This document shows, one piece after another, positions 18,111 to 32,730 of a DNA stretch of 64,000 bases. How positions within the stretch are numbered: the first letter of the stretch is position 1; every line of letters starts with the position of its first letter. Location of the stretch: assembly GCA_964449385.1 (NCBI GenBank), contig CAYUYO010000002.1:15414-79413 (forward strand), read 5' to 3'. Below the pieces are notes generated by a model that saw only the letters and a list, made by a program, of their open reading frames with translations, ran no database searches and had not been told where the DNA came from. The translations under genes were made by a program, and so were the position numbers. This stretch comes from an uncultured Candidatus Saccharibacteria bacterium. GTDB lineage: Bacteria > Patescibacteriota > Minisyncoccia > Minisyncoccales > CAYUYO01.

Positions 18111-18921
18111 TTTTAGTAGTAATTTCAGCTATTTCTTCATAACTCATATTTTTAATTTGAGCAATTTTTTCAGCAACATATTTCACATATAAAGGTTCAT
18201 TTCTACCTTTAATTTGAGGCGGAGTTAAATAGGGACAGTCAGTTTCAATCAAAATTTTATCTAAAGGAGTTTTCTTGATTATTTCCATAAAGTCAATTCC
18301 CTCAATTTTTTTGAAAATTATTCCGTTAAATCCGAGATAAAAACCCATTTTCAAATACTTTTCTGCCTGCTCAAAGTTTCCGGTAAAACAGTGAATTACT
18401 CCTTTTAGATTAGAGAAAGCAGGTCTTTGTAAAATTTCTAAAAGGTCTTGATGAGCCATTCGGCAATGAAAGATTATTGGAAGGTTTAATTCTTTTGCTA
18501 ATTTCAACTGCTTTAAAAAACTTTCTTTTTGTTTTTCTTTAAAAAGTTCTAATTTTTTCTTTGTTTTCGGTCGGTAATAGTAATCTAAACCAATTTCACC
18601 AATAGCTTTTACCTTTTTAGATTTAGCTAAGCTCTTGTATTTTTCTTCATCAAATTCTTCTTCTCTGGTTTGAAATTCTATTTCTTCTTTATTTATTTTT
18701 GTTTTAAAAATTCCTGCTGACAGGTGGATAGGATGAATACCGACAGCAGCATAAATTCCCTTTTCATATCTCTCGGCAATCTCTACCGCCTTTTTACTAG
18801 TTGTATATTGCGAACCAACGTTTATCATCCAAACATTATTTTCCAAACAATTTTTAATTACTTTGTCAAAATCTTCTTTAAAAGCAGTAAAATTTAAATG
18901 ACTATGAGTATCAATTAACAT
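18085..18921 (-). CDS. tatD: TatD-family metal-dependent hydrolase/DNase
   Basis: LIDTHSHL metal motif, GEIGLDYY, IETDCPYL. Confidence 0.9.
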   Translation of the reverse strand: MLIDTHSHLNFTAFKEDFDKVIKNCLENNVWMINVGSQYTTSKKAVEIAERYEKGIYAAVGIHPIHLSAGIFKTKINKEEIEFQTREEEFDEEKYKSLAKSKKVKAIGEIGLDYYYRPKTKKKLELFKEKQKESFLKQLKLAKELNLPIIFHCRMAHQDLLEILQRPAFSNLKGVIHCFTGNFEQAEKYLKMGFYLGFNGIIFKKIEGIDFMEIIKKTPLDKILIETDCPYLTPPQIKGRNEPLYVKYVAEKIAQIKNMSYEEIAEITTKNAKKLFAI

Positions 18922-18924
18922 AAG

Positions 18925-20376
18925 TTAAATTCGAGGAAATAAAACTCCACCTTTTCTTGTATTTAGTTGTTTTAATATTTTTTCTGACGTCTCGGGTAAA
19001 AATGGCTTCAGCATTTCAGCAATATTTTTTAAAGCGAATAATAAATTATTGATAATTGATAATTGTTTTTTGGATTTTTCCCAAGGTTTTTCTTTTTCAA
19101 TATAACGGTCACAAAAACTAATTAATTCCCAAATTGAAATTAAAGCTTCGTTAAACTCAAATTCATCTAAGGCTTTTCTATAATTTTTCCAAGCATTTTT
19201 AATCATCTTTTGAATATTTGGACTTGAGACTTGATTAAATACTGAATATTGAGATTTAGAGTTTATACTCCTTGCCATTGTTATTACTCGAGCAGTAAAG
19301 TTCCCTAAACCATTAGCTAAGTCAGCATTATAACGTTCTTCAAATTTTTGATAAGTAAAATCTCCATCCTCACTAGACGGAATTTCTCTTAAAAGAAAAT
19401 ATCTAACAGTATCTGTTCCATATTTTTCAACTAATCCAAAAGGGTCAATAACATTTCCCAAACTTTTTGACATTTTTTGCCCCTCAACAGTAATAAAACC
19501 ATGAATAAAAATAACCTTTGGAAGGGGTAACTTCAAAGAAAGAAGCATTCCTGGCCAAATTAAACAATGAAACTTTTGGATATCTTTACCTATACAATGG
19601 ACATCAACCGGCCAAAATTTCTGAAATTTCTTATTATTTTCCGTATATCCTAAAGCAGAAAGATAATTTACTAGGGCATCTCCCCAGACATAGATAGTCT
19701 GAGTATTATCTCCTGGCACAGGGATACCCCATTTTAAATATTTTCTGGAACGGGAAAAGCTAATATCTTCCAACCCCATTTTCAGAAAGCTCAGCATTTC
19801 ATTCTTGCGAGTCTGAGGAATTATTTTAATTTTGTTATTTTTAATTATTTTCTCAATTTTTTTTGAATACTTAGAAAGTTTAAAAAAATAATTTTCTTCT
19901 TCAACTGCTTGAGGTTTAGTTTGATGAATAACGCATTTTCCATTTTTTAAATCTTTTTTCGTAATAAAAGCCTCACATCCTGAACAATATAATCCCTTAT
20001 ATTTCTTTTTGTAAATATCATTATTCTTTTCTAATCTTAGCCAAACTTTTTGGACTACGGACCAATGTCTTTTTTTCTCAGTAGTTCGAATAAAATCATC
20101 GTTGGACAAATTTAAAATTTTTTTAAGAGCCCTAAACCTTGCTGAAATCTTATTACAAAATTCCCGCGGAGTTTTACCAACCTTTTCGGCCGATTTAACT
20201 ACTTTTTGTCCGTGTTCGTCCGTGCCAGTTAAGAAAAAAACATCGTTGCCTAAAATTCGATGATACCGAGCCAGAACGTCTGCTTGAATAATTTCTAATG
20301 CAAACCCCAAATGAGGAAATGAATTAGTATAAGCAATACTGCTGGTAATATAAAATTTTTTATTTTGTGCTGTCAT
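18925..20376 (-). CDS. metG: methionyl-tRNA synthetase (short form without C-terminal tRNA-binding appendix)
   Basis: FPHLGFALE (HIGH-type), QKMSKSLGN (KMSKS), zinc knuckle YCSGCEAF; 483 aa. Confidence 0.95.
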   Translation of the reverse strand: MTAQNKKFYITSSIAYTNSFPHLGFALEIIQADVLARYHRILGNDVFFLTGTDEHGQKVVKSAEKVGKTPREFCNKISARFRALKKILNLSNDDFIRTTEKKRHWSVVQKVWLRLEKNNDIYKKKYKGLYCSGCEAFITKKDLKNGKCVIHQTKPQAVEEENYFFKLSKYSKKIEKIIKNNKIKIIPQTRKNEMLSFLKMGLEDISFSRSRKYLKWGIPVPGDNTQTIYVWGDALVNYLSALGYTENNKKFQKFWPVDVHCIGKDIQKFHCLIWPGMLLSLKLPLPKVIFIHGFITVEGQKMSKSLGNVIDPFGLVEKYGTDTVRYFLLREIPSSEDGDFTYQKFEERYNADLANGLGNFTARVITMARSINSKSQYSVFNQVSSPNIQKMIKNAWKNYRKALDEFEFNEALISIWELISFCDRYIEKEKPWEKSKKQLSIINNLLFALKNIAEMLKPFLPETSEKILKQLNTRKGGVLFPRI

Positions 20377-20382
20377 AATTTA

Positions 20383-20403
20383 AAAAGAGGCTTAACCTCT
20401 TTT
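20383..20403 (-). terminator. candidate intrinsic terminator after the AI-2E-family gene
   Basis: Minus-strand hairpin AAAGAGG-TTAAG-CCTCTTT followed by TT. It sits between the upstream gene stop (20462) and the metG start (20376). The stem is short, so this is a weak call. Confidence 0.4.
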
Positions 20404-20461
20404 AATTTTAGCAAAAATTTATCTTAATTTAAAGCCTATTTTTTGTTCAATATATCTATTA

Positions 20462-21490
20462 TCAAAGAATTACTGTTTCTTCTTCTTTCTTTTTGTTTAA
20501 AAAATCTCTTAAAAATTCAAATAAAATTCCGGCTATTGGAATAGCTAAAATTGCTCCTAAAACACCCCATAATTTCGCTCCTACTAACAAAGCAATTAAA
20601 ACTAAGACAGCCGGCAAGCCAACAAATTTTTTAGTTAAAATTGGAGTTAAAATATTACCTTCAATTTGTTGAATTAAAATAAAAGCGATTAAGACAAATA
20701 ATGCTTTCAGCCAGGAGTCTAGACCGGCTAAACTTACAATAAGAATTCCAGCTAAAATCGGTCCTAAAACCGGAATAATATCCATTATTCCTGCGAATAA
20801 AGATAAACCAAAAGCATAATCTATATTAAAAAGTCGAAGAACAAGATAAGAGGCTAATCCAATAAAAATACAACATAAAACTCTTGCTCCAAACCAACCG
20901 GCTACTTTTTCCTGACTTCTTTTCCAGAGTGTTAAAATAGAAGATTCGTATTTTTTAGGAGAAAGAAGAAGTACCGCTTTTTCAACTCCTTTCTCTTCTA
21001 GAGATAGAAAAAGTGCAATAGCGAAAATAGTAAGGGTAGAGGTAATGCCTCCAAAAATAGCTCCTATTGCAGAAAAAATATTAGATGAAGCTTTAATCAA
21101 CCATCCTTGAAAAGCAGTAGTTAAACTTTCCATGCTTTCAAAGGCCTCGATTCCTAATCCTTTTAATGGTGGAGCAATTTTTTCAAAGTATTGAGGAAAA
21201 AGCTGAGAAAACCGCTGAATTTCCGAAACAAAAATCGGAGCTGTCCAATAAATAACCAGTCCTAAAATCCCAAAAATAACAACATAAACAAGAGTAACAG
21301 AAAGAACTCGAGACAAACGATATTTTTGTAAAAAATTAATTGCTGGATTAAATAAAACTGAAATGATTAAAGCAAAAATAACTAAAATTAAAATATCTTT
21401 TATTAAATAAAGAATATAAAAACAAAGTAAAGTAATAGCAATCTTTAAAATTGTTTCCCAAGAAATATCTAATGTTTTTTTGTTATCCAT
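20462..21490 (-). CDS. AI-2E family (PerM/UPF0118) membrane transporter
   Basis: About 8 hydrophobic helices with the family-typical layout, including the C-terminal GAILAIP segment. Confidence 0.75.
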   Translation of the reverse strand: MDNKKTLDISWETILKIAITLLCFYILYLIKDILILVIFALIISVLFNPAINFLQKYRLSRVLSVTLVYVVIFGILGLVIYWTAPIFVSEIQRFSQLFPQYFEKIAPPLKGLGIEAFESMESLTTAFQGWLIKASSNIFSAIGAIFGGITSTLTIFAIALFLSLEEKGVEKAVLLLSPKKYESSILTLWKRSQEKVAGWFGARVLCCIFIGLASYLVLRLFNIDYAFGLSLFAGIMDIIPVLGPILAGILIVSLAGLDSWLKALFVLIAFILIQQIEGNILTPILTKKFVGLPAVLVLIALLVGAKLWGVLGAILAIPIAGILFEFLRDFLNKKKEEETVIL

Positions 21491-21491
21491 T

Positions 21492-22754
21492 TTACAGCTT
21501 TAATAACTTTTGAAATCTTTCTTTATTTTTAAATGGACCGATCAAAGATAAGTTTAATTTTTTAGGTTGAAAAATATCTTTTGCCACTTTCAAAATATCA
21601 TTAGCAGAAACTTTGTCAATTTTTTTAAAAACTTCTTCCAGAGTTAAAATTTTCTTTTCTAAAAGTTCCTGACCAGCATAAAAAGAAGCTAAAATATCGG
21701 AAGATTCTAATAAAAGAGCAGTCTTTCCTTTTATATAATCTTTAGCTTTTTTGAGCTCATCTTTAGGAACTTTCTTTTGAGAAATTCTTTTATATTCTTT
21801 TAAGATAGTTAAAATAGCTTTCTCAATATTTTTATTGTCTACCCCGGCCTGAGTAACTAAAAATCCTGTATCAGGATCGCTGTCAATATTAGTCTTAATA
21901 TAATAGGCTATGCCCAATTTTTCTCTAATTTCAACAAATAATCGAGAGCTCATCATTCCTCCCAAAATTGTGCCTAAAACTTCTTGTGTGTATTTTTGAG
22001 GATGAAAAAGATTATAACCTCTTACCCCTAAAGCTAAATGAGTTTGGTCACTCTTTTTTGAATATAAGAGACAGGCTGGTTCTATTTGATTTTCAACAAC
22101 CGATTGTTTTTGATCAGGCTTGGTAGTTTTGATTTCAGAGAAATATTTCTTAATTTTATTTATTACTTTGAAATTTACTTTTCCAGAAACACAAACTATA
22201 GTATTTGAAGCCACATATTGTTTTTTTCTGTAGTTTGAAATCTGCTCTTTTTTTATCTTCATTACATTTTCTTTGGTTCCAGCTACAGGCCAGCCAGCTG
22301 GTTGATTTCCATAAAGAACTTCTTTCCATAATTCTTCAATATGTATCATAGGAGTATCTAAATACATATTTATTTCTTCAATAATTACCCCTCTCTCTTT
22401 GTTTATTTCCTTTTCAGGCAATAAACTATTGAAATAAATGTCAGAAACCCAATCCAAAGCTAAATCTAAATGAGAAGCTTCAACCTTAGCGAAATATCCC
22501 GTATATTCTTCACCAGTAAAGGCATTATAAATTCCGCCGATTTTATCTAATGGTTCTACTACTTTTACAGAGGAAGGCCTTTTTTTTGTTCCCTTAAAAA
22601 ATAAATGTTCTAGAAAGTGAGAAATACCGTTTATTTCTTTAGTCTCATATTTTGAACCGGTGCCAACTAAAGCTAAAACCGTCACTGCTTGAGTACTTTT
22701 CTGAGGAACAATGATAATTCTCAATCCGTTTTTAAGAGTAATTTTCCGGAACAT
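21492..22754 (-). CDS. M16-family (insulinase/pitrilysin-like) zinc peptidase
   Basis: Inverted zinc motif HFLEHLFFKGT (HxxEH); 420 aa, two-lobed length. Confidence 0.9.
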   Translation of the reverse strand: MFRKITLKNGLRIIIVPQKSTQAVTVLALVGTGSKYETKEINGISHFLEHLFFKGTKKRPSSVKVVEPLDKIGGIYNAFTGEEYTGYFAKVEASHLDLALDWVSDIYFNSLLPEKEINKERGVIIEEINMYLDTPMIHIEELWKEVLYGNQPAGWPVAGTKENVMKIKKEQISNYRKKQYVASNTIVCVSGKVNFKVINKIKKYFSEIKTTKPDQKQSVVENQIEPACLLYSKKSDQTHLALGVRGYNLFHPQKYTQEVLGTILGGMMSSRLFVEIREKLGIAYYIKTNIDSDPDTGFLVTQAGVDNKNIEKAILTILKEYKRISQKKVPKDELKKAKDYIKGKTALLLESSDILASFYAGQELLEKKILTLEEVFKKIDKVSANDILKVAKDIFQPKKLNLSLIGPFKNKERFQKLLKL

Positions 22755-24090
22755 TTAACTTTTCTTTTAAAATCTTAATTAAATCTTTGATTTTTATTCT
22801 TTTTTGTTTCATTGTGTCGCGGTCACGAATTGTCACCATATCGTCCTTTAATGTATCAAAATCTATAGTTATTGCTGCAATAACCCCAACTTCGTCTCCT
22901 CTTCGGTATCTTCTACCAATTGAACCGAGTTCGTCATACTGACAGAAAAAATGAGGTTTAAGAAGTTTAAAAATTTCCTCAGCCTTTTTAACTATTTCCG
23001 GTTTATTTTTAACTAACGGCAAAATTGCAACTTTTATAGGAACTAATCTTTTATTTAATTTTAATAAAACTTCTTCTTCTTTATTTGCTTTAGTAGTTTT
23101 AGTTCTTCCTCCTTTTATTTCTTGAAAACTCTCGCATAAAAAAGCTAAAAAACTTCTACCTACTCCGACTGAGGTTTCAATAATATAAGGAAAATATTTT
23201 TCCTTGGTTTCCTCGTCAAAATATTTCAAATCTTTTCCGGAATATTTTGAGTGATTTGATAAATCAAAATCGCCCCGATTATGAACTCCTTCAATTTCTT
23301 TCCAACCGAAAGGAAATTTATATTCAATATCTATTTGTTGTCTAGCATAATGAGCTCTTTCTTTTTCCGGAACAACTTTTGCCCTCAAATTTTCTTTTTT
23401 GATACCTAAATCTAAATACCATTTTATTCTTTCTTCTTTCCAGAAATCAAAATACTTTTCAGCCGTTTTCGGATAACAAAACCACTGCATTTCCATTTGT
23501 TCAAATTCTCTTGTTCGATAAATAAAATTACCGGGTGTTATTTCGTTTCTAAAAGATTTGCCGATTTGAGCTATTCCAAAAGGAACTTTTAATCTCATTG
23601 AATTTAAAACATTTTCAAAGTTAATATAAATTCCTTGACAGGTTTCAGCTCTTAAATAGGTTTCTGAGCTTTCTTTTTCTACTGGTCCGATAAAAGTTTT
23701 CATCATTAAATTAAATTTTTTTGGTTTAGTCAATTCTCCTTTGCATTCCGGACATTTTTGGATTTCAGATTTTGAATTTTGAATTTCGTCTAATTTAAAT
23801 CTCTTATGGCATTTTTTGCATTCTACTAACTCATCAGCAAAACCAGCCGTCAGATGGCCGGAAGCATGCCAAACTTTAGGACTCATTAAAATTGCCGCAT
23901 CTAAGCCGACAATATTTTGGTGATTTTGCAGCATATCTGACCACCAAACTTTTTTAATATTATTTTTCATCAAAACTCCTAATGGCCCAAAGTCATAACA
24001 AGAAGCAAAACCGTTATAAATTTCCGAAGATGGAAAAACAAATCCTCGCCTTTTACAAAGTGAAATAATTTTTTGCATTAAGTCTTGCAT
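22732..24090 (-). CDS. glyQS: glycyl-tRNA synthetase (alpha2 GlyQS type)
   Basis: Class II motifs (FRNEITPG, GVGRSFLAF), FNLMMKT, zinc-like CKKCHKR..CPECKGE insertion; 452 aa. Confidence 0.95.
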   Translation of the reverse strand: MQDLMQKIISLCKRRGFVFPSSEIYNGFASCYDFGPLGVLMKNNIKKVWWSDMLQNHQNIVGLDAAILMSPKVWHASGHLTAGFADELVECKKCHKRFKLDEIQNSKSEIQKCPECKGELTKPKKFNLMMKTFIGPVEKESSETYLRAETCQGIYINFENVLNSMRLKVPFGIAQIGKSFRNEITPGNFIYRTREFEQMEMQWFCYPKTAEKYFDFWKEERIKWYLDLGIKKENLRAKVVPEKERAHYARQQIDIEYKFPFGWKEIEGVHNRGDFDLSNHSKYSGKDLKYFDEETKEKYFPYIIETSVGVGRSFLAFLCESFQEIKGGRTKTTKANKEEEVLLKLNKRLVPIKVAILPLVKNKPEIVKKAEEIFKLLKPHFFCQYDELGSIGRRYRRGDEVGVIAAITIDFDTLKDDMVTIRDRDTMKQKRIKIKDLIKILKEKLNVPENYS

Positions 24091-24095
24091 AATAT

Positions 24096-25772
24096 TTATT
24101 GAATTTTTCCCATATCTGCAGTTACGGTCGGGTCATCCGGTAAAGTTGTATTAATATTAATGGCAGTCTCAGTTAAGATTTCTTTAGTCCACATATCCTC
24201 ACCTTCTACTTTTGCTTGGCCAATAATTTCCGGGGTTTGATTTCTCTGAGAAGAATTTGGAGTAAAAGCAATTTGAAAAGCAACATTTAGAGTTTCGTTG
24301 TTAGTAGCAGCTAAAACTCCATGACCCGTTTTTAGTTCTCCAACATGCCAAATAATTTCCTGGGATTCCGAATCAACAAATAATTTTTCAGTTTCTTTTT
24401 CTGGAAAAATACTACCGGTTAATTTAACATTTTCAGGCAAAATTGCTTTCACTTTAACATTTTGAACATCATTATAATGATTTTTAATCTGCCATATTAT
24501 AGTATAGGTTGTAGGTTCGTTTATTTTTGGTGGTAGAGGGCCAGAATTTCCAAAAACTTCATCTTCGAAATAACCTTTTTGGATTATTTCTAATTTTGAA
24601 TTAACTTTGGTTGTAAATTCTTCTCTGGCCTGACTCAAATAAATTTTATCTTTTATCATTTCTTCTCCTTTAGAAGAAGAAATTTCCCATTCATCTTTTA
24701 ATTTTATCCAAAAATCAACCTTGCCTTGTTTTTGAACATCTAAAAATTGAAGATCTCTCACTCGGCGCCAATCCCACAAAATAGAATTATCCCCTGTTTC
24801 ATATTCTCCATCAGGCGCTCTTAAGGTTGTTAAATCAAAAGCTGTACCGCTTAAAGTAACTTGTAAAGGCATGTCAATTAAAGCTTCCTCACCAATATTT
24901 TTAAAGAAAATTTCATAATGAAGCAAATCTCCGGGAGAAGCTACATATTCCGGGCTGCCGTTAATTTGTTGAACAATATACAAAGCAGGTCTAATAATTT
25001 CCACTCCTTTAACAGCCTTTTTTAATAAAATAAATTCTCCATTCTGCCAGCTGCCAAATTCGGCTTGAAAAGTTTTTTCATCGCCGATTTCTCCTCTCAC
25101 CTCACCTGTTATTTCAATTCTTCCACCCTCAGCTTTATTCAAAGAACCGGGAATTTCCCACTCTACTTTTTCCAAGCTTTGAGGTTCGGATTCAATAAAC
25201 TCAAAACCACTCGGATACTCGATTTTGCATCTTAAGTTTGAAATAGGATAATTAATATTCGAAAAATAATTTAAAGTAAATTTTAATTTTCCTCCTGACT
25301 TAATTTTAGAAGGCAAATCAAAGTCAAAATTTAAAGGAACAGAATTAATAATAGTGGTGAAAGTAGTATTTGATTCATAACGAGCTTTTAAATTTTTAAC
25401 TTGATAACTTAAAGAAACTTTAGCTTGAAAGGACTGACCTTCTCTTCCTAAAAGCCTAGCTTTGAAAGGATAGGTTCTTTCTTCACCGGGATAAATATCA
25501 TCTAAAACAATTTCTTTTCTTAAAATATTTCCTTCAACAATTGAGTATTCTGGATACTCAAAAATAAGCTTTGGCTCTTCCAGACAAATTTTGCCGTTGT
25601 TTTTATATTTTACAAGATATTCAAAATCTTCGGCAATTTCTACTTCCTCCGGAGCCAAGATTTCCAGTTTCAAGACTTCTTTTGAATAGCTGTTTGAATT
25701 CCAATAATAAAAACCAACCATTCCAAGTAAACTGGTCAAAATAATTAAGAAAATAATAAATTTTTTACGCAT
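24096..25772 (-). CDS. membrane-anchored surface protein with repeated beta-sandwich (CARDB/DUF11-like) modules
   Basis: N-terminal hydrophobic anchor FIIFLIILTSLLGMVGFYYW. Four modules of similar beta-rich pattern (EYLVKYKNNG, LKFTLNYFSN, LLHYEIFFKNIG, YTIIWQIKNH). No enzymatic motif seen. Confidence 0.5.
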   Translation of the reverse strand: MRKKFIIFLIILTSLLGMVGFYYWNSNSYSKEVLKLEILAPEEVEIAEDFEYLVKYKNNGKICLEEPKLIFEYPEYSIVEGNILRKEIVLDDIYPGEERTYPFKARLLGREGQSFQAKVSLSYQVKNLKARYESNTTFTTIINSVPLNFDFDLPSKIKSGGKLKFTLNYFSNINYPISNLRCKIEYPSGFEFIESEPQSLEKVEWEIPGSLNKAEGGRIEITGEVRGEIGDEKTFQAEFGSWQNGEFILLKKAVKGVEIIRPALYIVQQINGSPEYVASPGDLLHYEIFFKNIGEEALIDMPLQVTLSGTAFDLTTLRAPDGEYETGDNSILWDWRRVRDLQFLDVQKQGKVDFWIKLKDEWEISSSKGEEMIKDKIYLSQAREEFTTKVNSKLEIIQKGYFEDEVFGNSGPLPPKINEPTTYTIIWQIKNHYNDVQNVKVKAILPENVKLTGSIFPEKETEKLFVDSESQEIIWHVGELKTGHGVLAATNNETLNVAFQIAFTPNSSQRNQTPEIIGQAKVEGEDMWTKEILTETAININTTLPDDPTVTADMGKIQ

Positions 25773-25774
25773 TG

Positions 25775-26515
25775 TTAGAATATATAAGAATAATAATCTT
25801 GAGAAATTATATCCAGGGATTCTAAATAAGATTTTTCGATTTTTAATCTAAGTAGCTTTTTCAAATCCTTCTCAAGAATAATTCTTAAAATTTTTATTAT
25901 TTCGGGCTTTATCCCTTTATTTGATTTTAATTTTTTAAAACAGTTTTGGCAAATTATTCCTCCTTCTTTTGAGTTAAAATAAAGCTCTCCTGGCGTTAGT
26001 TTATTTTGGCAAACGGAACAATTATAAAGTTCTGGCTGATAACCTAAAAAAGAAAGGATGTTCCAGAAAAAATAGTGATAAATAATCTCAGATTTCAAAC
26101 CCCGATCATCAAGTTCCTGAAAAATTTCTTTAAGCAATTGCCAAATTCTTTTATCCTCTTCTTGTTCTTTTATTAAATCATTAAAAGTCTCAGAAATTTT
26201 ATAGACAATAGCCAATCTCACTAAATTCCCTTTTAAATTATTAAAATTCTTAATTGAAATAGCGTCGGTTAAGGTTTTATAGATTTTCCCTTGGACAAAT
26301 TCAATTTCTGATAGGCAAAAAAGTTCAAGACCCCCTCTTAATTTTGATTTAATTTTTCTTTCGGCTTTAGCTAAAAATTCTGATTTGCCGAAATCTTTAG
26401 TATAAATTGTAAAAATTCGGTCGGCTTCTCCTCTGTCGGTTTCCTTTAAAATAAAACCGTTGGTTCTATAGTGAGTAAACATTAGTACAATTGATTTATC
26501 TCTGATAAGGATCAA
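25775..26515 (-). CDS. recO: DNA repair protein RecO
   Basis: N-terminal OB-fold pattern (GFILKETDRGEADRIFTIYT) and zinc finger CSVCQNK..CQNC. Confidence 0.85.
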   Translation of the reverse strand: MILIRDKSIVLMFTHYRTNGFILKETDRGEADRIFTIYTKDFGKSEFLAKAERKIKSKLRGGLELFCLSEIEFVQGKIYKTLTDAISIKNFNNLKGNLVRLAIVYKISETFNDLIKEQEEDKRIWQLLKEIFQELDDRGLKSEIIYHYFFWNILSFLGYQPELYNCSVCQNKLTPGELYFNSKEGGIICQNCFKKLKSNKGIKPEIIKILRIILEKDLKKLLRLKIEKSYLESLDIISQDYYSYIF

Positions 26516-26810
26516 CTCCGGTAACTCCTTTCAAAAATTGGAGTTTTCTATCAATTTTAAACTTTTCTTCTCTGGTTTTAGCTCTATATTTTTCTTGCCT
26601 CAATTCTCTTTCCCGTTTTCGACATTCAATTTCTGAAATATGACTGCCAAACCTTTGTCTGGGAAAAACTTCTGCTTCCATTTTTATCCTTTCTTGCCGA
26701 GAATATATCTTACCACCACTGCCAGGAATGCGAGCTGGAGCTGTTTTTAATATTTGCCTAAAATCTCTTCGGGAAAGTTCTCCGTGAGACTTTTTTGAAA
26801 AAATTGCCAT
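26496..26810 (-). CDS. hypothetical small basic protein
   Basis: 104-aa Arg/Lys/Glu-rich ORF packed between ileS and recO, overlapping the recO start by 20 nt. No motif recognised. Confidence 0.45.
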   Translation of the reverse strand: MAIFSKKSHGELSRRDFRQILKTAPARIPGSGGKIYSRQERIKMEAEVFPRQRFGSHISEIECRKRERELRQEKYRAKTREEKFKIDRKLQFLKGVTGVDPYQR

Positions 26811-26813
26811 AAT

Positions 26814-29800
26814 TTAAATTTTTTTAATACCTAACCACAATATTTGACCATCGACCTTTATCTCACGTTCGATATCAAATACTCTTTTTGGCATATCACC
26901 TATTTGAAAGTTTTTCACCTTAGCTTCTTTTTGAATAAAATCTTTATTTTTACTCAGAATTTCATTAAGATTTGGAGTTCCTGAATATCTAACTGAAATT
27001 CTGTGTCTTGACTTATATCCGGCTTTCTTTCTCATCTCTTGAATTTGGCGAACAACTTCTCTGATTATTCCTTCTTCTTTTAATTCTTGAGTAATTTTAA
27101 TATTTAATTTTAAAACTTTACCAAAAGTAATTTCTTTAACATTAACTTCCTCTTTAATCAAATTTAATAATTGATTTGGGATTTGGATATTAAGTTCAGG
27201 AATTTGAAGTGAAGCTAATGGCTGTCTTACTTTAATTCCAACCTTTGCTCTTTCTGCCAATGATAAACTGGCAATCTCTCTGACTTTCACCATTTTTTGA
27301 TTTAAAGATTTGTTAATTAATTTTTTATCACTTTCTGGCCAATTGGTTAAATGAACACTTAATTCTTGAACCAAATTTTTATAGATTTCTTCGCTTAAAA
27401 ATGGAATAAACGGAGCAGAAAGCAATGAAAGTTCAAATAAAACATAACCTAAAGTTCTTGAAGCATTATTAAGCTCTTCTTTTGTTTTAGGTTTTTGGAA
27501 TCTTTGACGTGAACGGCGAATATACCAATTGGACAAATCATCTATAACAAAACTTTCAATACTTCTGGCGGCTGAAGTTATATCATAATTATCCAAATCA
27601 TTAGTTGTTTTTTGAATCAATCCATGTAGTTTTGAAATAATCCATTTGTCTAAAAAATGTTTAAAATCTAGAGGTTTAGAGATTGAAGCTTTCTTTTTTG
27701 GAGCATATGTACTGTAAAATGTGTAGCTATGCCACAAAGTTAAAATAAATCTCTTCAGGGCCTGTTCAACATTTTTTTCTTCAAAAAGTTTACTATCGCC
27801 AGGCCGATTAACAGTGAAGAAATACCAGCGAACAGCATCTGCTCCATATTTATTACAAATAAACCATGGATCAACTATATTGCCTTTTGACTTTGACATT
27901 TTCTCTCCCTTTTTATCCAAGACATGGCCTAAAGAAATAACATTTTTATAAGAAGAGCCAAAACCTAAAAGAGTAGAAATCGCTAATAAGGTATAAAACC
28001 AACCTCTAGTTTGGTCTATAGCTTCACAAATAAAATCTGCTGGAAATAATTTCGGAGGTCTTAGTTTTTGACTCGCAAAAGACCAATGGCTTTGAGCAAA
28101 TGGCATACTTCCTGAATCAAACCAGCAATCAATTACCTCTGGTACTCTTTTCATTAAACCTTTCCCGCATTTTGGACAATAAAATTTAACTTCATCAATA
28201 TAGGGACGATGAAAATCCAATTCCATTTTCTCATTGTATGGAAGCTTCTTAAACTCCAACTTTCTTAATTCTCCCGTTTTTATTTCTTTTTTTCTGGTAA
28301 TAATTTCTACAAACTTTTTAAGATCATAATCGTAGATTACTTTTTCAAGTAAAGTAAAAGGGCGTTGATGGCTCACGATTAAAATGTTTTTCCCTTGATA
28401 TTTTTCATTAATTTCTTTTATAAATTTAGACATTCTTTTTTCTACGGCAATATAGGTTTCTCCTTTAGGCAGAGCAATCTGAAATCTTTTTGAATAATAT
28501 TCTAAGGGTAAAAGTTTTTTTTCTTTATCCCAAAATTTTCCAATTTCTTTAATCGGTTTTCCATTTAAAACTCCAACATTAATCTCTCTTAGTTTTTTAT
28601 CAAGCTTTGGTTTAATTCCTAGTTTTTTGCCAATAATCTCAGCGGTTTGCCTTGTTCTTAAAAGGTCTGAAGAAAAAATCAAATCAATCTTTTCTCTCTT
28701 GAGTTTCTGTCCAACTTCTCTGATTTGTTTTTCTCCCTTTTTAGTCAGGGGACAATAAAGTTTCTCCGGCCAACAAACAGCAATATCTTTTATATTTCTC
28801 AAAGATTCACCATGCCTTAAAATAAAATATTTATTTTTTGTAAATTTTTGAGCAAGTAAATCTTTTTTTGAGCCAATCACTTCTTGATGATTACATTTTT
28901 CGCATTGCCAAATAGGAAAAGGTGTTCCCCAATATCTTTCTCGAGTAATCACCCAGTCTTTAATTTCTCTCAACCATTCTCCAAACCTACCGTTTTTTAA
29001 ATGAGACGGAAACCAATTGATTTTTTGGTTATTTTCAATTAAATTTTTTTTAACTTTTGTCATTCTGATAAACCAGCTCTTCTTGGCATAGTATAAAAGA
29101 GGAGTTTTACATCGCCAACAAAAAGGATAATCATGCTCATATAGTTCTTCAGCAAAAAGTAGGTTTTTCTTTTTTAGATAAGTTAAAATTAAAAATTCTG
29201 TCTCTTTATCTTTAACGTATTTATCAGCTAAGCCTTCTCCTATATTTTTGATGAATCTTCCTTTCTCTGTAACTGTATGATAATTTGGTATGTTGAATTT
29301 TTTACCCAAATTATAGTCATCTTCACCATACATTACTGCCGTATGGACAATGCCGGTTCCCTCTTCGGTTGTTACAAAATCAGCCGGATATATTTTATAC
29401 GAAGTTTTCGATTTTAGTTGAGCTATTTTAAATAACGGCTTATATTCCAATCCTAATAAGTCTTTCCCTTTTATTTCTTCAAGAACTTTATAATCTCCAG
29501 ATAAAATTTTTAATCTTTCTTTTGCTAAAATAAAAATTTCATTTTTAATTTTAATTTTCACATAAGTGAACTTTGGATTTATAGCTAAAGCGACATTACC
29601 CGGCAAAGTCCATGGTGTTGTTGTCCAAGAAAGAATTGAAGTATTTTCCCATTTTTTGTCTTTAGATAAAATCTTAAATTTAATATAAACTGATGTTTCT
29701 TTAACCTTCTTATATCCCTGAGCTACTTCATGTGAAGACAAACTTGTGCCGCATCTCGTACAATAAGGAACTACCTTATAGTCTTGATATAAAAGCTTTT

Positions 29801-30290
29801 TTTGATAAATTTGTTTTAAAATTTGCCAAACCGTTTCAATATATTCTGGTTGATAGGTAATATAGGGATTTTTGATATCCAACCAAAAACCAATTCTTTG
29901 GGTTAATTTTTCCCAATCATCCTTATAGGTCCAAACTGACTGTTTACATTTTTTATTAAATTTAGCTATTCCGTATTTTTCAATATCTTTTTTATTTTTC
30001 AAACCTAATTTTTTTTCAACTTCTAATTCTACCGGTAAGCCGTGAGTGTCCCAGCCAGCCTTTCTTAATACCTTAAATTTTTGCATGGTTTTATATCTTA
30101 AAACAATATCTTTATAAGCTCGGCTCAGAATATGATGAATTCCTGTTTTACCATTGGCTGTTGGCGGCCCCTCATAAAAAATAAAATCTTTATATTTAGT
30201 TCTTAGTTCAATACTTTTTTCAAAAATTCTGTTTTCTCGCCAAAATTTTAATATCTTTTTTTCAATTTTTGGAAGACTAAAATATGACAT
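26814..30290 (-). CDS. ileS: isoleucyl-tRNA synthetase (type 2) carrying an inserted histidine-phosphatase domain
   Basis: PPTANGKTGIHH (HIGH), WTTTPWTLPGN (CP1 editing), DFHRPYID, GEKMSKSKGN (KMSKS), anticodon-binding C-terminus. Single uninterrupted 1158-aa frame. Confidence 0.95.
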   Translation of the reverse strand: MSYFSLPKIEKKILKFWRENRIFEKSIELRTKYKDFIFYEGPPTANGKTGIHHILSRAYKDIVLRYKTMQKFKVLRKAGWDTHGLPVELEVEKKLGLKNKKDIEKYGIAKFNKKCKQSVWTYKDDWEKLTQRIGFWLDIKNPYITYQPEYIETVWQILKQIYQKKLLYQDYKVVPYCTRCGTSLSSHEVAQGYKKVKETSVYIKFKILSKDKKWENTSILSWTTTPWTLPGNVALAINPKFTYVKIKIKNEIFILAKERLKILSGDYKVLEEIKGKDLLGLEYKPLFKIAQLKSKTSYKIYPADFVTTEEGTGIVHTAVMYGEDDYNLGKKFNIPNYHTVTEKGRFIKNIGEGLADKYVKDKETEFLILTYLKKKNLLFAEELYEHDYPFCWRCKTPLLYYAKKSWFIRMTKVKKNLIENNQKINWFPSHLKNGRFGEWLREIKDWVITRERYWGTPFPIWQCEKCNHQEVIGSKKDLLAQKFTKNKYFILRHGESLRNIKDIAVCWPEKLYCPLTKKGEKQIREVGQKLKREKIDLIFSSDLLRTRQTAEIIGKKLGIKPKLDKKLREINVGVLNGKPIKEIGKFWDKEKKLLPLEYYSKRFQIALPKGETYIAVEKRMSKFIKEINEKYQGKNILIVSHQRPFTLLEKVIYDYDLKKFVEIITRKKEIKTGELRKLEFKKLPYNEKMELDFHRPYIDEVKFYCPKCGKGLMKRVPEVIDCWFDSGSMPFAQSHWSFASQKLRPPKLFPADFICEAIDQTRGWFYTLLAISTLLGFGSSYKNVISLGHVLDKKGEKMSKSKGNIVDPWFICNKYGADAVRWYFFTVNRPGDSKLFEEKNVEQALKRFILTLWHSYTFYSTYAPKKKASISKPLDFKHFLDKWIISKLHGLIQKTTNDLDNYDITSAARSIESFVIDDLSNWYIRRSRQRFQKPKTKEELNNASRTLGYVLFELSLLSAPFIPFLSEEIYKNLVQELSVHLTNWPESDKKLINKSLNQKMVKVREIASLSLAERAKVGIKVRQPLASLQIPELNIQIPNQLLNLIKEEVNVKEITFGKVLKLNIKITQELKEEGIIREVVRQIQEMRKKAGYKSRHRISVRYSGTPNLNEILSKNKDFIQKEAKVKNFQIGDMPKRVFDIEREIKVDGQILWLGIKKI
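28236..28838 (-). other. histidine phosphatase (PGAM/His_Phos_1-like) domain inserted in IleRS, aa ~485-685
   Basis: LRHGES (R492/H493), SDLLRTRQTA (R545), REINVGVLNG (E569), LIVSHQ (H641). Lies between the two Cys pairs of the IleRS zinc knuckle (C463/C466 and C705/C708). Confidence 0.8.
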
Positions 30291-30294
30291 AAAA

Positions 30295-31884
30295 TTACAT
30301 TTTTTCCGGAGACGAAATCCCCATTAAACTTAAAGTATTTTCTAAAATAATTTTAACGGCTAGAGCTAAAGATAAACGTGCCTGAGTTAATTTTTTATCA
30401 TTAGATATTACTCGACAATTTCGATAAAATTGATGGAAAGAAGTAGCTAAACTTATTGTATATTGAGACAATCTCTGAACTTGATAGTCTTTAGTAGTGT
30501 CTTCTATAATTTCAGGAAATTTAATTAATTGTTTAATCAAAAAAAGTTCTGAAGAATGATTTAGCAATTTAAGATTTTGTGTATTAGTTATTTTAATTGG
30601 TAATTTTCCGTATTTGCGCAATATCGAGCAAATACGAGCATGAGCATACTGACAATAATAAACAGGACTTTTATTTGACTTCTCTTTTGCTAGATTAACA
30701 TCAAATTCCATCTGAGTGTCTAAGGACTTTGTCAAATAAATAAATCTAGCTGCGTCCAAACCAACTTCATCTATCAACCATCTTAAAGTAACAACATTTC
30801 CTTCTCTTTTAGAAATTTTTCCTCCTTTCAATCGAACCACTTGAGAAATTAAAATGTCTAAATCTCCTTTAAAACCTAACATTTTAACTGCAGCTTTTAT
30901 TTTAGAGACATGTCCTTGGTGATCAGCTCCCCAAATATCAATAATTTTATCAAACTTCCTGTAAATTTTATCTTTATGATAAGCAATATCACTTAATAAA
31001 TAAGTCGGCTCACCGTTTTTTCGAATAATTACCCAATCTTTTTTATCTCCAAATTTTGAGGTTTTTCCCCATTCAGCTCCTTCTTTTTTATAAATTAAAT
31101 CTTTCTTTTTCATCCACTTATAAATTTTACTTATTTCGTTTTTCTTATATAAGTTTTCTTCTGAAATCCAATTATCAAACTTAATCTTTAGTTTCTCTAC
31201 AATGAAGTTTTTAACATCTTTTTGAATCTCTTGGGTTAATAAAAAACCTGCCTCGCCTTCGTTTTTAGTTTTTTTAAATTTAGATTTAAGGTTTAAGATT
31301 TGAGTTTTGAGATAAGGAGTTAAATAAGTAGTGCCTTTACCTAAAGCTGTTTTTCCTAATTCCTTAATTTGGCTACTTTCTTTCGCATTATTAATATAAT
31401 ATTCTCTAACAACCCTATAATCTGCTTTTTCTAAAACATTAGCTAAACAATCACCAAAAAATGCTCCCCTACCGTGGCCTAAATGTAATTGCCCAGTAGG
31501 ATTAGCTGAAATAAATTCAATATTTACTTTTTTTCTTTTGCCAATTTTTAACCGGCTAAATTTTCCATTTAGCTTTAAAATTTCTGTAATTTGTTTCTGT
31601 AAATATTCTTTTGAAAGAAAAAAATTAATAAACCCAGGAGAAACTGCTTCAACTTTCTCAAACAGTTTTAATCTTTTATTAATTATTAATAATTGATTAC
31701 TAATTATTTCAGCGATTTCTAAAGGATTCTTTCCAACCTGTTTAGTAATGACTATTGCTATATTTGTTGCATAATCCCCGCGAGTTTTCTCTTCTGGATG
31801 TTCAACTTTAATCTCTTTAATCTCAGCAAGATTGAAGTTTTTTATCGATTTTTTTATTAATTCTTTAATTATTTGCCTAATCAT
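30295..31884 (-). CDS. argS: arginyl-tRNA synthetase
   Basis: SANPTGQLHLGHGRG (HIGH), DALR-type anticodon-binding C-terminus; 529 aa. Confidence 0.95.
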   Translation of the reverse strand: MIRQIIKELIKKSIKNFNLAEIKEIKVEHPEEKTRGDYATNIAIVITKQVGKNPLEIAEIISNQLLIINKRLKLFEKVEAVSPGFINFFLSKEYLQKQITEILKLNGKFSRLKIGKRKKVNIEFISANPTGQLHLGHGRGAFFGDCLANVLEKADYRVVREYYINNAKESSQIKELGKTALGKGTTYLTPYLKTQILNLKSKFKKTKNEGEAGFLLTQEIQKDVKNFIVEKLKIKFDNWISEENLYKKNEISKIYKWMKKKDLIYKKEGAEWGKTSKFGDKKDWVIIRKNGEPTYLLSDIAYHKDKIYRKFDKIIDIWGADHQGHVSKIKAAVKMLGFKGDLDILISQVVRLKGGKISKREGNVVTLRWLIDEVGLDAARFIYLTKSLDTQMEFDVNLAKEKSNKSPVYYCQYAHARICSILRKYGKLPIKITNTQNLKLLNHSSELFLIKQLIKFPEIIEDTTKDYQVQRLSQYTISLATSFHQFYRNCRVISNDKKLTQARLSLALAVKIILENTLSLMGISSPEKM

Positions 31885-31914: not shown

Positions 31915-32373
31915 ATGAAAGAGATGAAGATTTTTGCTGAAAATAAAAAAGCTTATTTTAACTACGAAATTTTGGAAAGATTTGAAGCTGGAATTTCTTT
32001 GATTGGACAAGAAGTAAAATCAATAAAATTAGGAAGAGTAAACTTGTCCGGTTCTTATATAATTTTAAAAAACAACGAAGTTTTTTTAATCGGAGTTAAT
32101 ATTCCTCCATATCAGTCAAAAAATATTTCCTCAGACTATAATCCCGAACGCTCAAGAAAATTACTTCTGAAAAAGGCCGAAATCAAACATTTAATTGGTA
32201 AAGCTAAACAGAAAGGCTTGACTTTAGTGCCCTTAAAAGCTTATACTAAGAAAAGAAAAATTAAAATTGAATTTGGGATTGCTAAAGGAAAGAAAAAAAC
32301 AGATAAAAGAGAAGTAATCAAAAAACGAGAGTTTAAGAGAGAAAAAGAAAGAGAGTTAAGACTACGGGGGTGA
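31915..32373 (+). CDS. smpB: SsrA-binding protein
   Basis: KKAYFNYEI, GQEVKSIK, basic C-terminal tail. The stop TGA at 32371-32373 lies inside the tmRNA 5' acceptor strand. Confidence 0.95.
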   Translation: MKEMKIFAENKKAYFNYEILERFEAGISLIGQEVKSIKLGRVNLSGSYIILKNNEVFLIGVNIPPYQSKNISSDYNPERSRKLLLKKAEIKHLIGKAKQKGLTLVPLKAYTKKRKIKIEFGIAKGKKKTDKREVIKKREFKREKERELRLRG

Positions 32374-32730
32374 TATGAATCGACAGAAGTTTTTATTAAA
32401 ATAGGCAGATCGAGCATTAATAGAAACTCGTTAAACTTTTATTAAAAAAATAAGTGCTAACTTATTCGCAAGCAAACAGCTTGCTCCTGTTTACGCTTAA
32501 AACCGTAAACCATCTGCCCGTTAATTCTCGATAGGCGGACTCAGGTGTCATATTATCGAGATAGATAATTTCTTTTGATTTAGGAGAAAATATCAAAAAA
32601 TACTAGATCAGAATCGTAAATGTTTTTGCTTAATTTTTAATTTATGATTTCTAATTTAAATTAAGCTAAATCTGTAGAAATATTTTAATAAAGTTTCTGG
32701 ATTGGGGTCCAAATCCCCACACCTCCACCC
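32366..32730 (+). ncRNA. ssrA: tmRNA (SsrA)
   Basis: 5' GGGGGTGATATGAATCGAC resembles the canonical tmRNA 5' end. Acceptor GGGGGUG/CACCUCC has the G3:U wobble, discriminator A plus CC. T arm TGGGG-TCCAAAT-CCCCA. Tag frame GCT AAC ... GCT TAA at 32456-32500 is preceded by AATAAGT. Confidence 0.9.

Follow-up and report, generated by a model that had tools for sequence, protein, structure and literature searches.

Why does the isoleucyl-tRNA synthetase (IleRS) gene of an ultra-small bacterium of the "candidate phyla radiation" encode a histidine phosphatase in the middle of its own reading frame, and what might that phosphatase do there? The question is raised by ileS on a 64,000-nucleotide stretch (the window) of contig CAYUYO010000002.1 (assembly GCA_964449385.1, positions 15,414 to 79,413), from an uncultured Candidatus Saccharibacteria bacterium of the Patescibacteriota. 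A reading made from the letters alone (the sequence-only reading) had described an apparently intact, "PGAM-like" phosphatase domain inside the zinc knuckle of this synthetase. We found that the gene represents, in fused form, a conserved module of Patescibacteria with two parts, a phosphatase and an IleRS. It is probable that one polypeptide here combines two enzymes, a type-2 IleRS and a branch-1 histidine phosphatase nested at the tip of the zinc-knuckle hairpin of connective peptide 3 (CP3). This judgement takes in what was observed and what is carried over from the phosphatase superfamily, and does not extend to the substrate. Coordinates below are window positions, and amino acid (aa) numbers are those of the 1158-aa IleRS protein; conservation counts refer to its 120 closest homologues (59-70% identity; 1120-1221 aa). 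The host gene and the parts of the synthetase that surround the insert are as follows:

26814..30290, minus strand: ileS, type-2 isoleucyl-tRNA synthetase with nested phosphatase; one uninterrupted open reading frame (ORF) of 1158 aa with an ATG start
28842..30290, minus strand: aa 1-483, comprising the first Rossmann half, the CP core, the CP1 editing domain, CP2, and the first half of CP3; Pfam tRNA-synt_1 over aa 12-488
30132..30143, minus strand: G50-I51-H52-H53, a non-canonical G-X-H-H form of the class I HIGH signature, read from the sequence
28893..28904, minus strand: C463-E-K-C466, first Cys pair of the CP3 zinc knuckle; both Cys invariant
28167..28178, minus strand: C705-P-K-C708, second Cys pair of the CP3 zinc knuckle; both Cys invariant
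27888..27902, minus strand: K797-M-S-K-S801, the class I KMSKS loop; invariant
26814..28226, minus strand: aa 689-1158, comprising the rest of CP3, the second Rossmann half, KMSKS, and the anticodon-binding and type-2 C-terminal domains

The single frame of 1158 aa at 26814..30290, for which the sequence-only reading had given no strand, was borne out by ORF analysis and lies on the minus strand. The motifs and residue numbers in that reading were all correct, including PPTANGKTGIHH, WTTTPWTLPGN, LRHGES, SDLLRTRQTA, REINVG, and LIVSHQ. The protein scored 889.7 bits against the IleRS equivalog model TIGR00392 (cut-off 621.4), in two stretches split by the insert, and the Pfam order was a tRNA-synt_1 piece, PF00300, a second tRNA-synt_1 piece, and then Anticodon_1 (aa 881-1025) and DUF5915 (aa 1061-1157, at the C-terminus). 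The editing-site motifs W222-L229 (WTTTPWTL), G311/G313/V315/H316, and D325 were invariant, and within the GIHH signature H52 was His in 119 of the 120 homologues and H53 in 111, with G50 conserved in at least 90%. A G/AXHH variant is functional in IleRS2 and confers hyper-resistance to mupirocin (Brkic et al., PMC10485003); it was shown experimentally to raise the mupirocin Ki about 1000-fold at most (PMC10485003). The window protein shares this signature with hyper-resistant IleRS2 and does not belong to the MupA/MupB resistance families, whose models it matched with 843/830 bits (cut-off 1900). In insert-bearing Peribacteria IleRS, the canonical HYGH is retained.

An AlphaFold 2 (AF2) model of the full-length protein reached a predicted local distance difference test (pLDDT) of 88.3 and a predicted template modeling (pTM) score of 0.80. 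Its best PDB matches were Priestia megaterium IleRS2 (8c8v/8c8u) and Thermus thermophilus IleRS (1ile), with E-values of 1e-73 to 5e-90 and Foldseek TM scores of 0.79-0.87 (target-normalized). These enzymes share the domain order and the type-2 C-terminus with the window protein, and the T. thermophilus enzyme shares the CP3 zinc knuckle as well; the known IleRS2 differ in being without the ~205-residue second enzyme in CP3. Thus characterized by its GXHH signature, KMSKS loop, intact CP1 editing site, and type-2 C-terminus, the host is a complete type-2 IleRS, and aminoacylation is its predicted activity.

What, then, interrupts CP3? The insert and its predicted catalytic residues are as follows:

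28227..28841, minus strand: inserted histidine phosphatase (branch 1, PhoE/PspA/CobC-like), aa 484-688, ~205 aa, from PF00300, AF2, Foldseek, and syntenic comparison
28812..28817, minus strand: R492-H493 of the RHG motif, with H493 the predicted phospho-accepting nucleophile; R and H in 120/120
28656..28658, minus strand: R545, second phosphate-pocket arginine; 120/120
28584..28586, minus strand: E569, predicted proton donor; E in 100/120, D in 20/120
28368..28370, minus strand: H641, second catalytic histidine; 120/120

The two Cys pairs are part of the subdomain known in the IleRS literature as CP3, which links CP2 to the second Rossmann half (PMC7191050); CP3 carries a zinc motif in T. thermophilus IleRS, and its topology varies between the IleRS of different organisms (PMC7191050). 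In the window protein, the insert stands in place of a short loop between the helix "KDLL" and "LDFHRPYID"; the sequence-only reading had put it at 28236..28838, which corresponds to aa 485-685. Three measures agree that standard type-2 IleRS lack this segment, as that reading had supposed. The stretch from RERYWG to DSGSMP spans 281 aa here and 77-83 aa in insert-less type-2 IleRS (Dehalococcoidia, Clostridia, Streptomyces, and others), aa 477 to 692 cover only positions 494 to 510 of TIGR00392 and 469 to 481 of MupA, and alignment to syntenic insert-less orthologues leaves a gap of ~200 aa at the insert.

His_Phos_1 (PF00300) matched aa 489-663 strongly (E 3.8e-36; 125 bits against a gathering score of 21.7; profile positions 2-169 of 194). 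Modelled alone, the insert was predicted as a discrete high-confidence domain (pLDDT 93.6, pTM 0.90), which agrees with the earlier suggestion that it could fold as an independent module. In the full-length model, the insert and its linkers had pLDDT values of 87-96, and the blocks near aa 480-490 and 680-700 stood at 92-96. Foldseek matched it with probability 1.0 and TM scores of 0.72-0.78 to 4ij6, 4qih, 1h2e, and 6nru. Compared with the small, broad-specificity branch-1 phosphatases PhoE (1h2e/1ebb), Hydrogenobacter phosphoserine phosphatase iPSP1 (4ij5), the alpha-ribazole phosphatase CobC (6nru, TTHB049), and mycobacterial GpgP (4qih), the insert shares the fold, the size of ~190-200 aa, the RHG...R...E...H set, and the cap (sequence E-values 5e-13 to 1e-8; TM 0.72-0.78); it differs in being only 19-26% identical to them, and in this comparison only the insert family is nested in, or operon-linked to, a tRNA synthetase.

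The family assignment is narrower than the fold. Among curated models, CobC (TIGR03162) scored best, at 101 bits against a cut-off of 162.9, and the scores for PspA (NF045917; 83.9 bits vs 350) and SixA (TIGR00249; 34.6 vs 74.5) likewise fell below membership. The phosphoglycerate mutase (dPGM) models were far under their cut-offs: TIGR01258 gave 32 bits vs 81.7, NF038349 (dPGM_arch) 86.5 vs 225, and PRK14115, PRK14120, and other dPGM models 18-30 bits vs 300-400. In Foldseek alignments, the insert was also ~50 aa shorter than dPGMs. The term "PGAM-like" is therefore apt for the fold and not for the family, since every curated mutase model failed and the PhoE/PspA/CobC-like branch fits. On the same scores, membership among the phosphoglycerate mutases, as an enzyme filling a gap in glycolysis, was rejected. 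Membership in a defence system was also rejected, as neither the insert nor two free-standing relatives had a PADLOC match at E <= 0.01. We conclude that the insert is a complete histidine phosphatase of the small phosphatase branch and not a mutase, with phosphatase activity predicted from its sequence. By the mechanism of the superfamily, the domain would hydrolyse a terminal phosphate via a phospho-His493 intermediate, with the phosphate held by R492, R545, and H641 and the proton donated by E569.

Could the fusion be an artefact? Metagenome assemblies can be chimeric, and a phosphatase gene does adjoin ileS in relatives, so a chimeric contig or a frameshift that fused the two genes was weighed. 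The insert lies in frame in the middle of ileS, 1.4 kb from the start and not at a gene edge. Its base composition (GC 0.26-0.31) is the same as that of the flanks, an identical protein is encoded on 11 contigs drawn from four sources (NCBI, JGI, ENA, Logan), the PF00300 insert is present in 120/120 closest homologues, and the same exact junctions recur in hundreds of independent orthologues. Chimera and frameshift are excluded because the identical protein on 11 contigs and the architecture shared by all 120 homologues speak against both, and we regard an assembly artefact as vanishingly improbable. The sequence-only reading had left misassembly to be checked, and no sign of it was found.

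Is the domain still an enzyme? Alternatively, its fold may have been kept as a dead phosphate-binding or spacer module, structural or tRNA-binding, comparable to the leucine-specific domain of LeuRS. Lineage-specific inserts without catalytic function are common near the active site of class Ia synthetases, and the insert was less conserved than the synthetase core (mean majority fraction 0.65 vs 0.80-0.84; C-terminal domain 0.68). The catalytic residues, however, argue otherwise. The nucleophile His, both Arg, the acid, and the second His were invariant or conservatively replaced in the 120 homologues, so the conservation of R492/H493/R545/E569/H641 in orthologues, which the sequence-only reading had left to be surveyed, held, and it held down to ~30% identity to the window. 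The set was kept in inserts of Yanofsky-, Wolfe-, Specht-, Peregrini-, and Peribacteria that are 30-40% identical, and in free-standing copies of the phosphatase; the RH motif was kept in 85 of the 86 inserts found in valyl-tRNA synthetase (ValRS; see below). A mere binding module would not need all of this set, and we consider a dead module highly unlikely.

How widespread is the arrangement? The sequence-only reading had not recognized it. The nesting of a phosphatase in a synthetase was confirmed, and it proved to be no singleton: it is widespread in Patescibacteria and unnamed in databases. A scan with one genome per species gave at least 27 loci with an insert at the CP3 site. The insert-bearing records (organism names are those of the metagenome records, and several labels are generic) included Paceibacteria, Parcubacteria, Wolfebacteria, Yanofskybacteria, Spechtbacterales, Peregrinibacteria, and Peribacteria. 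At 8 of the at least 27 loci, the zinc cysteines were lost, yet the insert was kept. One Peribacteria IleRS (L071) was without the insert, and a Peregrinibacteria IleRS with the same flanking motif (L018) carried it. A profile search of 1.84 billion cluster representatives returned 240 matches at E <= 1e-30; among the best 150 of these, 80 were IleRS or IleRS fragments and 62 were proteins of ~130-260 aa without an IleRS match, mostly 180-205 aa long, of which a few of the shortest may be fragments.

Several IleRS carried more than one copy of the domain. One (L002; CAZQSQ010000020.1, 2166-6248) had a domain in CP3 and another ~25 aa downstream, and Peribacteria IleRS (L022, L024, L025, L026) had two in tandem in CP3. 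In other IleRS, the second copy lay within the anticodon-binding domain. P0154 was among the multi-copy IleRS, and P0163 had three domains at three sites, two found by profile search and the third a truncated copy read from the sequence. Extra copies in IleRS were observed in tandem in CP3, in the loop after PFAQ.HYPFEN, and in the anticodon-binding domain, with intact motifs where these were read. By tblastn, no second phosphatase copy was found in the window.

Where the domain is not nested, where is it? The top match of the cluster-representative search was a 201-aa protein that matched the insert end to end and had 295 relatives at E <= 1e-20 (54-76% identical among the 120 listed). The free phosphatase was annotated only as "histidine phosphatase family protein" or "PhoE". 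All three free copies that we examined on long contigs lay directly upstream of, and co-directional with, an insert-less ileS (949-963 aa). The gene order in two of the three was of the window type, i.e., smpB, argS, [phosphatase], ileS, a small ORF, recO, a DUF7619 protein, and glyS; the third locus (L084) differed upstream, having no argS/smpB, and had the same order from the phosphatase to glyS. The free phosphatase was ~198 aa long and 58-68% identical to the window insert, its partner IleRS was 47-61% identical to the window IleRS core, and the two genes were spaced by 0 to ~60 nt or overlapped. The junction in question is represented in the window by the start of ileS and by argS:

30295..31884, minus strand: argS, 4 nt from the ileS start; relatives have the free phosphatase gene at this argS/ileS junction

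A metagenome scan with a second, more distant free clade gave a sample of 80 loci. The phosphatase was directly upstream of ileS at 41 of them, nested in ileS at 10, and at a contig edge at ~12, often with argS upstream. Nested and upstream copies occurred together at none of the loci examined, including this sample. Some of the labels in the databases follow the fusion: one source gives the name "isoleucyl-tRNA synthetase" to a free phosphatase (P0379, 197 aa), and "class I tRNA ligase family protein" is the only label of several insert-bearing IleRS. We also observed a divergent IleRS clade (L084, L092, L097, L122, L139, L142, and further loci of the first "upstream" clade), with RYWGL.LPIYEC.CG, SPHRPW, and NPWLD replacing DCWFDS. 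This clade is ~47% identical to the window core, branches apart from other patescibacterial IleRS in a rough tree, and has the phosphatase gene directly upstream too. At L084, a bAvd and reverse-transcriptase pair, which we take to be typical of diversity-generating retroelements, lies at 1313-2819, 3 kb upstream of the phosphatase-ileS pair.

How the two arrangements are related was approached with neighbour-joining trees, built for the domain and for the N-half of IleRS, which are rough, unbootstrapped, and based on short alignments. Free and inserted forms interleaved in these trees, with at least three "upstream" lineages, and more than one transition between the arrangements is likely. 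A tandem duplication of [phosphatase + N-half], followed by loss of one copy of each, could interconvert them; this route would account for the constant position of the free gene, just upstream and on the same strand. The corresponding intermediate, with a free and an inserted copy at one locus, was not found, and the argS-ileS gaps in insert-bearing loci held unrelated short ORFs. Viewed for scars of a deleted insert, the CP3 linkers of insert-less IleRS were longer, with a faint resemblance, only in L081-L083; those of the other 19 were clean and canonical, which fits insertion of the domain as well as its excision.

Is IleRS the only host? The same domain was found in ValRS, in which one protein (P0122) had four phosphatase domains. 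In the P0122 family, 70 of the 120 best relatives (P0122 itself and 69 of the 119 others listed, P0390-P0508) contain between one and four His_Phos domains. Of the 86 ValRS domains, 71 were at the homologous CP3 site, which is flanked by WCISRQ..WGH.IP.W and DTWFSS, and 9 were in CP2. The names of these records include Gracilibacteria and Peregrinibacteria, and one of the loci is L169 5001-8270. In addition, we found a single ArgRS with a C-terminal His_Phos domain (P0142, 689 aa) and a single Sua5/YrdC protein (TsaC, for synthesis of N6-threonylcarbamoyladenosine, t6A) with a C-terminal His_Phos domain (P0203, 387 aa), both of the same phosphatase subfamily. The alternation of nested and upstream forms, together with the up to four copies in ValRS, provides strong comparative evidence, drawn from sequence, for a putative functional partnership that has not been described. 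Less firmly, we infer from the fusion, the operon linkage, and the recurrence in IleRS and ValRS that the activity would serve the synthesis of Ile- and Val-tRNA and not an unrelated metabolism.

It is also possible that the phosphatase is a housekeeping enzyme of broad specificity for small molecules, without a mechanistic link to IleRS, which was moved into a permissive loop by neutral duplication and deletion and is kept only for the cell's own need of a phosphatase. The insert is a generic PhoE/CobC/PspA-like member, with no residues conserved beyond the superfamily core, and ~17 of the 80 sampled phosphatase genes were free genes in unrelated contexts, not beside ileS. The whole region is syntenic in relatives, so a shared ancestral gene order could account for the adjacency; CP3, whose topology is not uniform across IleRS (PMC7191050), may just be permissive to inserts; and the ArgRS fusion fits a read-through from argS into the adjacent phosphatase gene. 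Other observations are less easily accommodated. In different lineages, the domain family has come to lie at three or more sites of IleRS and at both CP3 and CP2 of ValRS, and up to four tandem copies occur, nearly all with intact catalytic motifs; unless a location in cis brings an advantage, such repeated entry and such intact tandem copies are difficult to account for. Furthermore, the phylogenetically distinct IleRS clade, too, retains the phosphatase gene upstream of ileS, and LeuRS, MetRS, ArgRS, and GlyRS of the window have no insert.

If the phosphatase does serve the synthetases, what would it act on? The sequence-only reading had named, as speculation, the repair of tRNA ends, the hydrolysis of phosphorylated nucleotides, and detoxification. 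One candidate is a product of the activation reaction. The phosphatase would hydrolyse AMP, a 5'-phosphomonoester, or the terminal phosphate of pyrophosphate (PPi), and would thereby pull amino-acid activation forward, replacing or supplementing a pyrophosphatase or nucleotidase in reduced genomes. All fusion partners (IleRS, ValRS, ArgRS, TsaC/Sua5) convert ATP to AMP and PPi, a diffusible substrate and a dosage effect would agree with insertion at various sites and in several copies, the substrate of the top-scoring curated model, CobC, is a nucleotide-like 5'-phosphate, and the gene lies within a cluster of aminoacyl-tRNA synthetase genes. Nevertheless, we consider product clearance distinctly unlikely. 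Tethering is of little kinetic benefit for a fast-diffusing small molecule, and this proposal gives no reason for the choice of IleRS and ValRS as hosts over LeuRS, MetRS, and GlyRS. These organisms are thought to be unable to make nucleotides such as AMP de novo, and destruction of AMP would waste that nucleotide. Pyrophosphatase activity is not known to us for any branch-1 histidine phosphatase, and the ArgRS and TsaC fusions are single examples that may be artefacts of adjacency. A tblastn search with an E. coli Ppa sequence gave no match to family-I pyrophosphatase in 1.4 Mb of loci, of which half were non-patescibacterial and which are too small a sample to indicate absence.

The substrate that we favour, tentatively and as one possibility, is an inhibitory phosphate at the reaction centre itself, either on the ribose of tRNA A76 or on a serine of the KMSKS loop. 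In the first case, the target would be a 3'-phosphate or pyrophosphate of the kind that toxSAS toxins make; in the second, it would be a phosphate on the synthetase's own KMSKS-loop serine, as HipA/HipT place on GltX and TrpS. Removal of the inhibitory phosphate would let charging proceed. A substrate at the reaction centre is favoured because the domain prefers CP3 and CP2, beside the catalytic fold, in two paralogues, because tethering clearly benefits action on a macromolecular substrate, and because there are precedents for its parts: protein-directed histidine phosphatases exist, toxSAS/CapRel-type toxins add phosphate or pyrophosphate to the 3'-terminal adenosine of tRNA, and HipA/HipT kinases phosphorylate the KMSKS-loop serine of the class I synthetases GltX and TrpS. 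By analogy with these toxins, the phosphatase may be an antidote, built into the synthetase or supplied from its operon, that protects IleRS and ValRS against toxSAS/CapRel-type or Hip-type phosphorylation; we regard this extension as rather improbable.

Several observations weigh against the proposed partnership and its favoured substrate. No phosphatase neighbour was found at two closely related insert-less ValRS, and tethering or co-transcription is not obligatory, given these ValRS and the ~17 unlinked genes among the 80 loci. The inserts in the anticodon-binding domain and the terminal fusions to ArgRS and TsaC argue against a strict geometry near the acceptor end, and the preference for CP3 could simply reflect an insertion-tolerant loop. 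No substrate-specific curated model (NCBIfam) scored above its cut-off for the insert, so that a substrate is not indicated. The insert also keeps a small cap subdomain, which is typical of the small-molecule members of the histidine phosphatase superfamily, and action on RNA ends is not known to us for any histidine phosphatase.

Does any described system resemble this one? The only curated precedent that we found for an extra enzyme domain inside IleRS is IleRS with GNAT (NF040702, ileS_w_GNAT), which differs in that its domain is an acetyltransferase located in the CP1 region (profile ~280-595) and not in CP3; the window protein scored 306 bits against 1999. The bifunctional RNase H/acid phosphatase (NF005567; Rv2228c-type) resembles the insert in that a CobC-like branch-1 phosphatase is fused to a nucleic-acid enzyme. 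There, however, the fusion is terminal and not nested and the partner is another one, and the insert scored 77 bits against a cut-off of 326 with the phosphatase half. The CP1 editing domain, the leucine-specific domain of LeuRS, and the IleRS ARD2 "INS" are, like the insert, lineage-variable modules in surface loops, and the presence or absence of such accessory inserts varies among lineages (bioRxiv 10.64898/2026.02.03.703510). Unlike the insert, these class I accessory modules act on the aminoacyl ester or bind tRNA, and none is a phosphatase. To our knowledge, no class I accessory module alternates with a free gene beside the synthetase gene. The insert is an accessory enzyme of a type not previously linked to aminoacylation. 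The combination of phosphatase and IleRS was covered by no curated family, and we found no description of the architecture in open-access full text, in which a paper of 2023 on the structure and phylogeny of IleRS2 and a preprint of 2026 on how IleRS domains evolved were covered, which does not prove that it is unpublished. As the sequences are public and their Pfam domains precomputed, the architecture is visible in databases and has gone unremarked.

The window also has an unusually dense cluster of five aminoacyl-tRNA synthetase genes in 16 kb (15669..31884, minus strand), to which ileS (26814-30290) and argS (30295-31884) belong. The remaining features are:

15669-18110, minus strand: leuS
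18925-20376, minus strand: metS
22732-24090, minus strand: glyS
24096..25772, minus strand: 558-aa protein with an N-terminal hydrophobic segment and a weak DUF7619 match, kept between recO and glyS in relatives
26496..26810, minus strand: conserved Arg/Lys-rich ORF of 104 aa between ileS and recO, directly downstream of ileS, without a Pfam match
31915..32730, plus strand: smpB (31915-32373), then the tmRNA gene (32366-32730; overlap 8 nt; tag peptide ASKQLAPVYA), followed by infC

An ORF of 101-142 aa occupies the position of the 104-aa ORF in all syntenic relatives examined (L081-L086). The 104-aa ORF is part of the conserved gene order and may belong to the phosphatase-IleRS module. smpB and the tmRNA gene form a compact trans-translation pair.

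Few enzymes have been studied as closely as the aminoacyl-tRNA synthetases, and it is rare to find a new catalytic domain in their cores. Here, a second, apparently active enzyme sits at the periphery of the IleRS catalytic domain and is conserved across much of a major bacterial radiation. The architecture distorts names in databases, and in pathway reconstructions the domain could be wrongly counted as a phosphoglycerate mutase. Its substrate could bring to light a further level of upkeep of tRNAs or synthetases, e.g., the removal of blocking phosphates, or a new solution to product removal in minimal cells; at the least, it could identify a core phosphatase of organisms whose metabolism is largely inferred. 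If the antidote proposal were true, it would provide the first case of a tRNA synthetase carrying its own repair phosphatase and of a histidine phosphatase working at the aminoacylation centre, and translation in these episymbiotic bacteria would be intrinsically resistant to the phosphorylating toxins of hosts, competitors, and phages.

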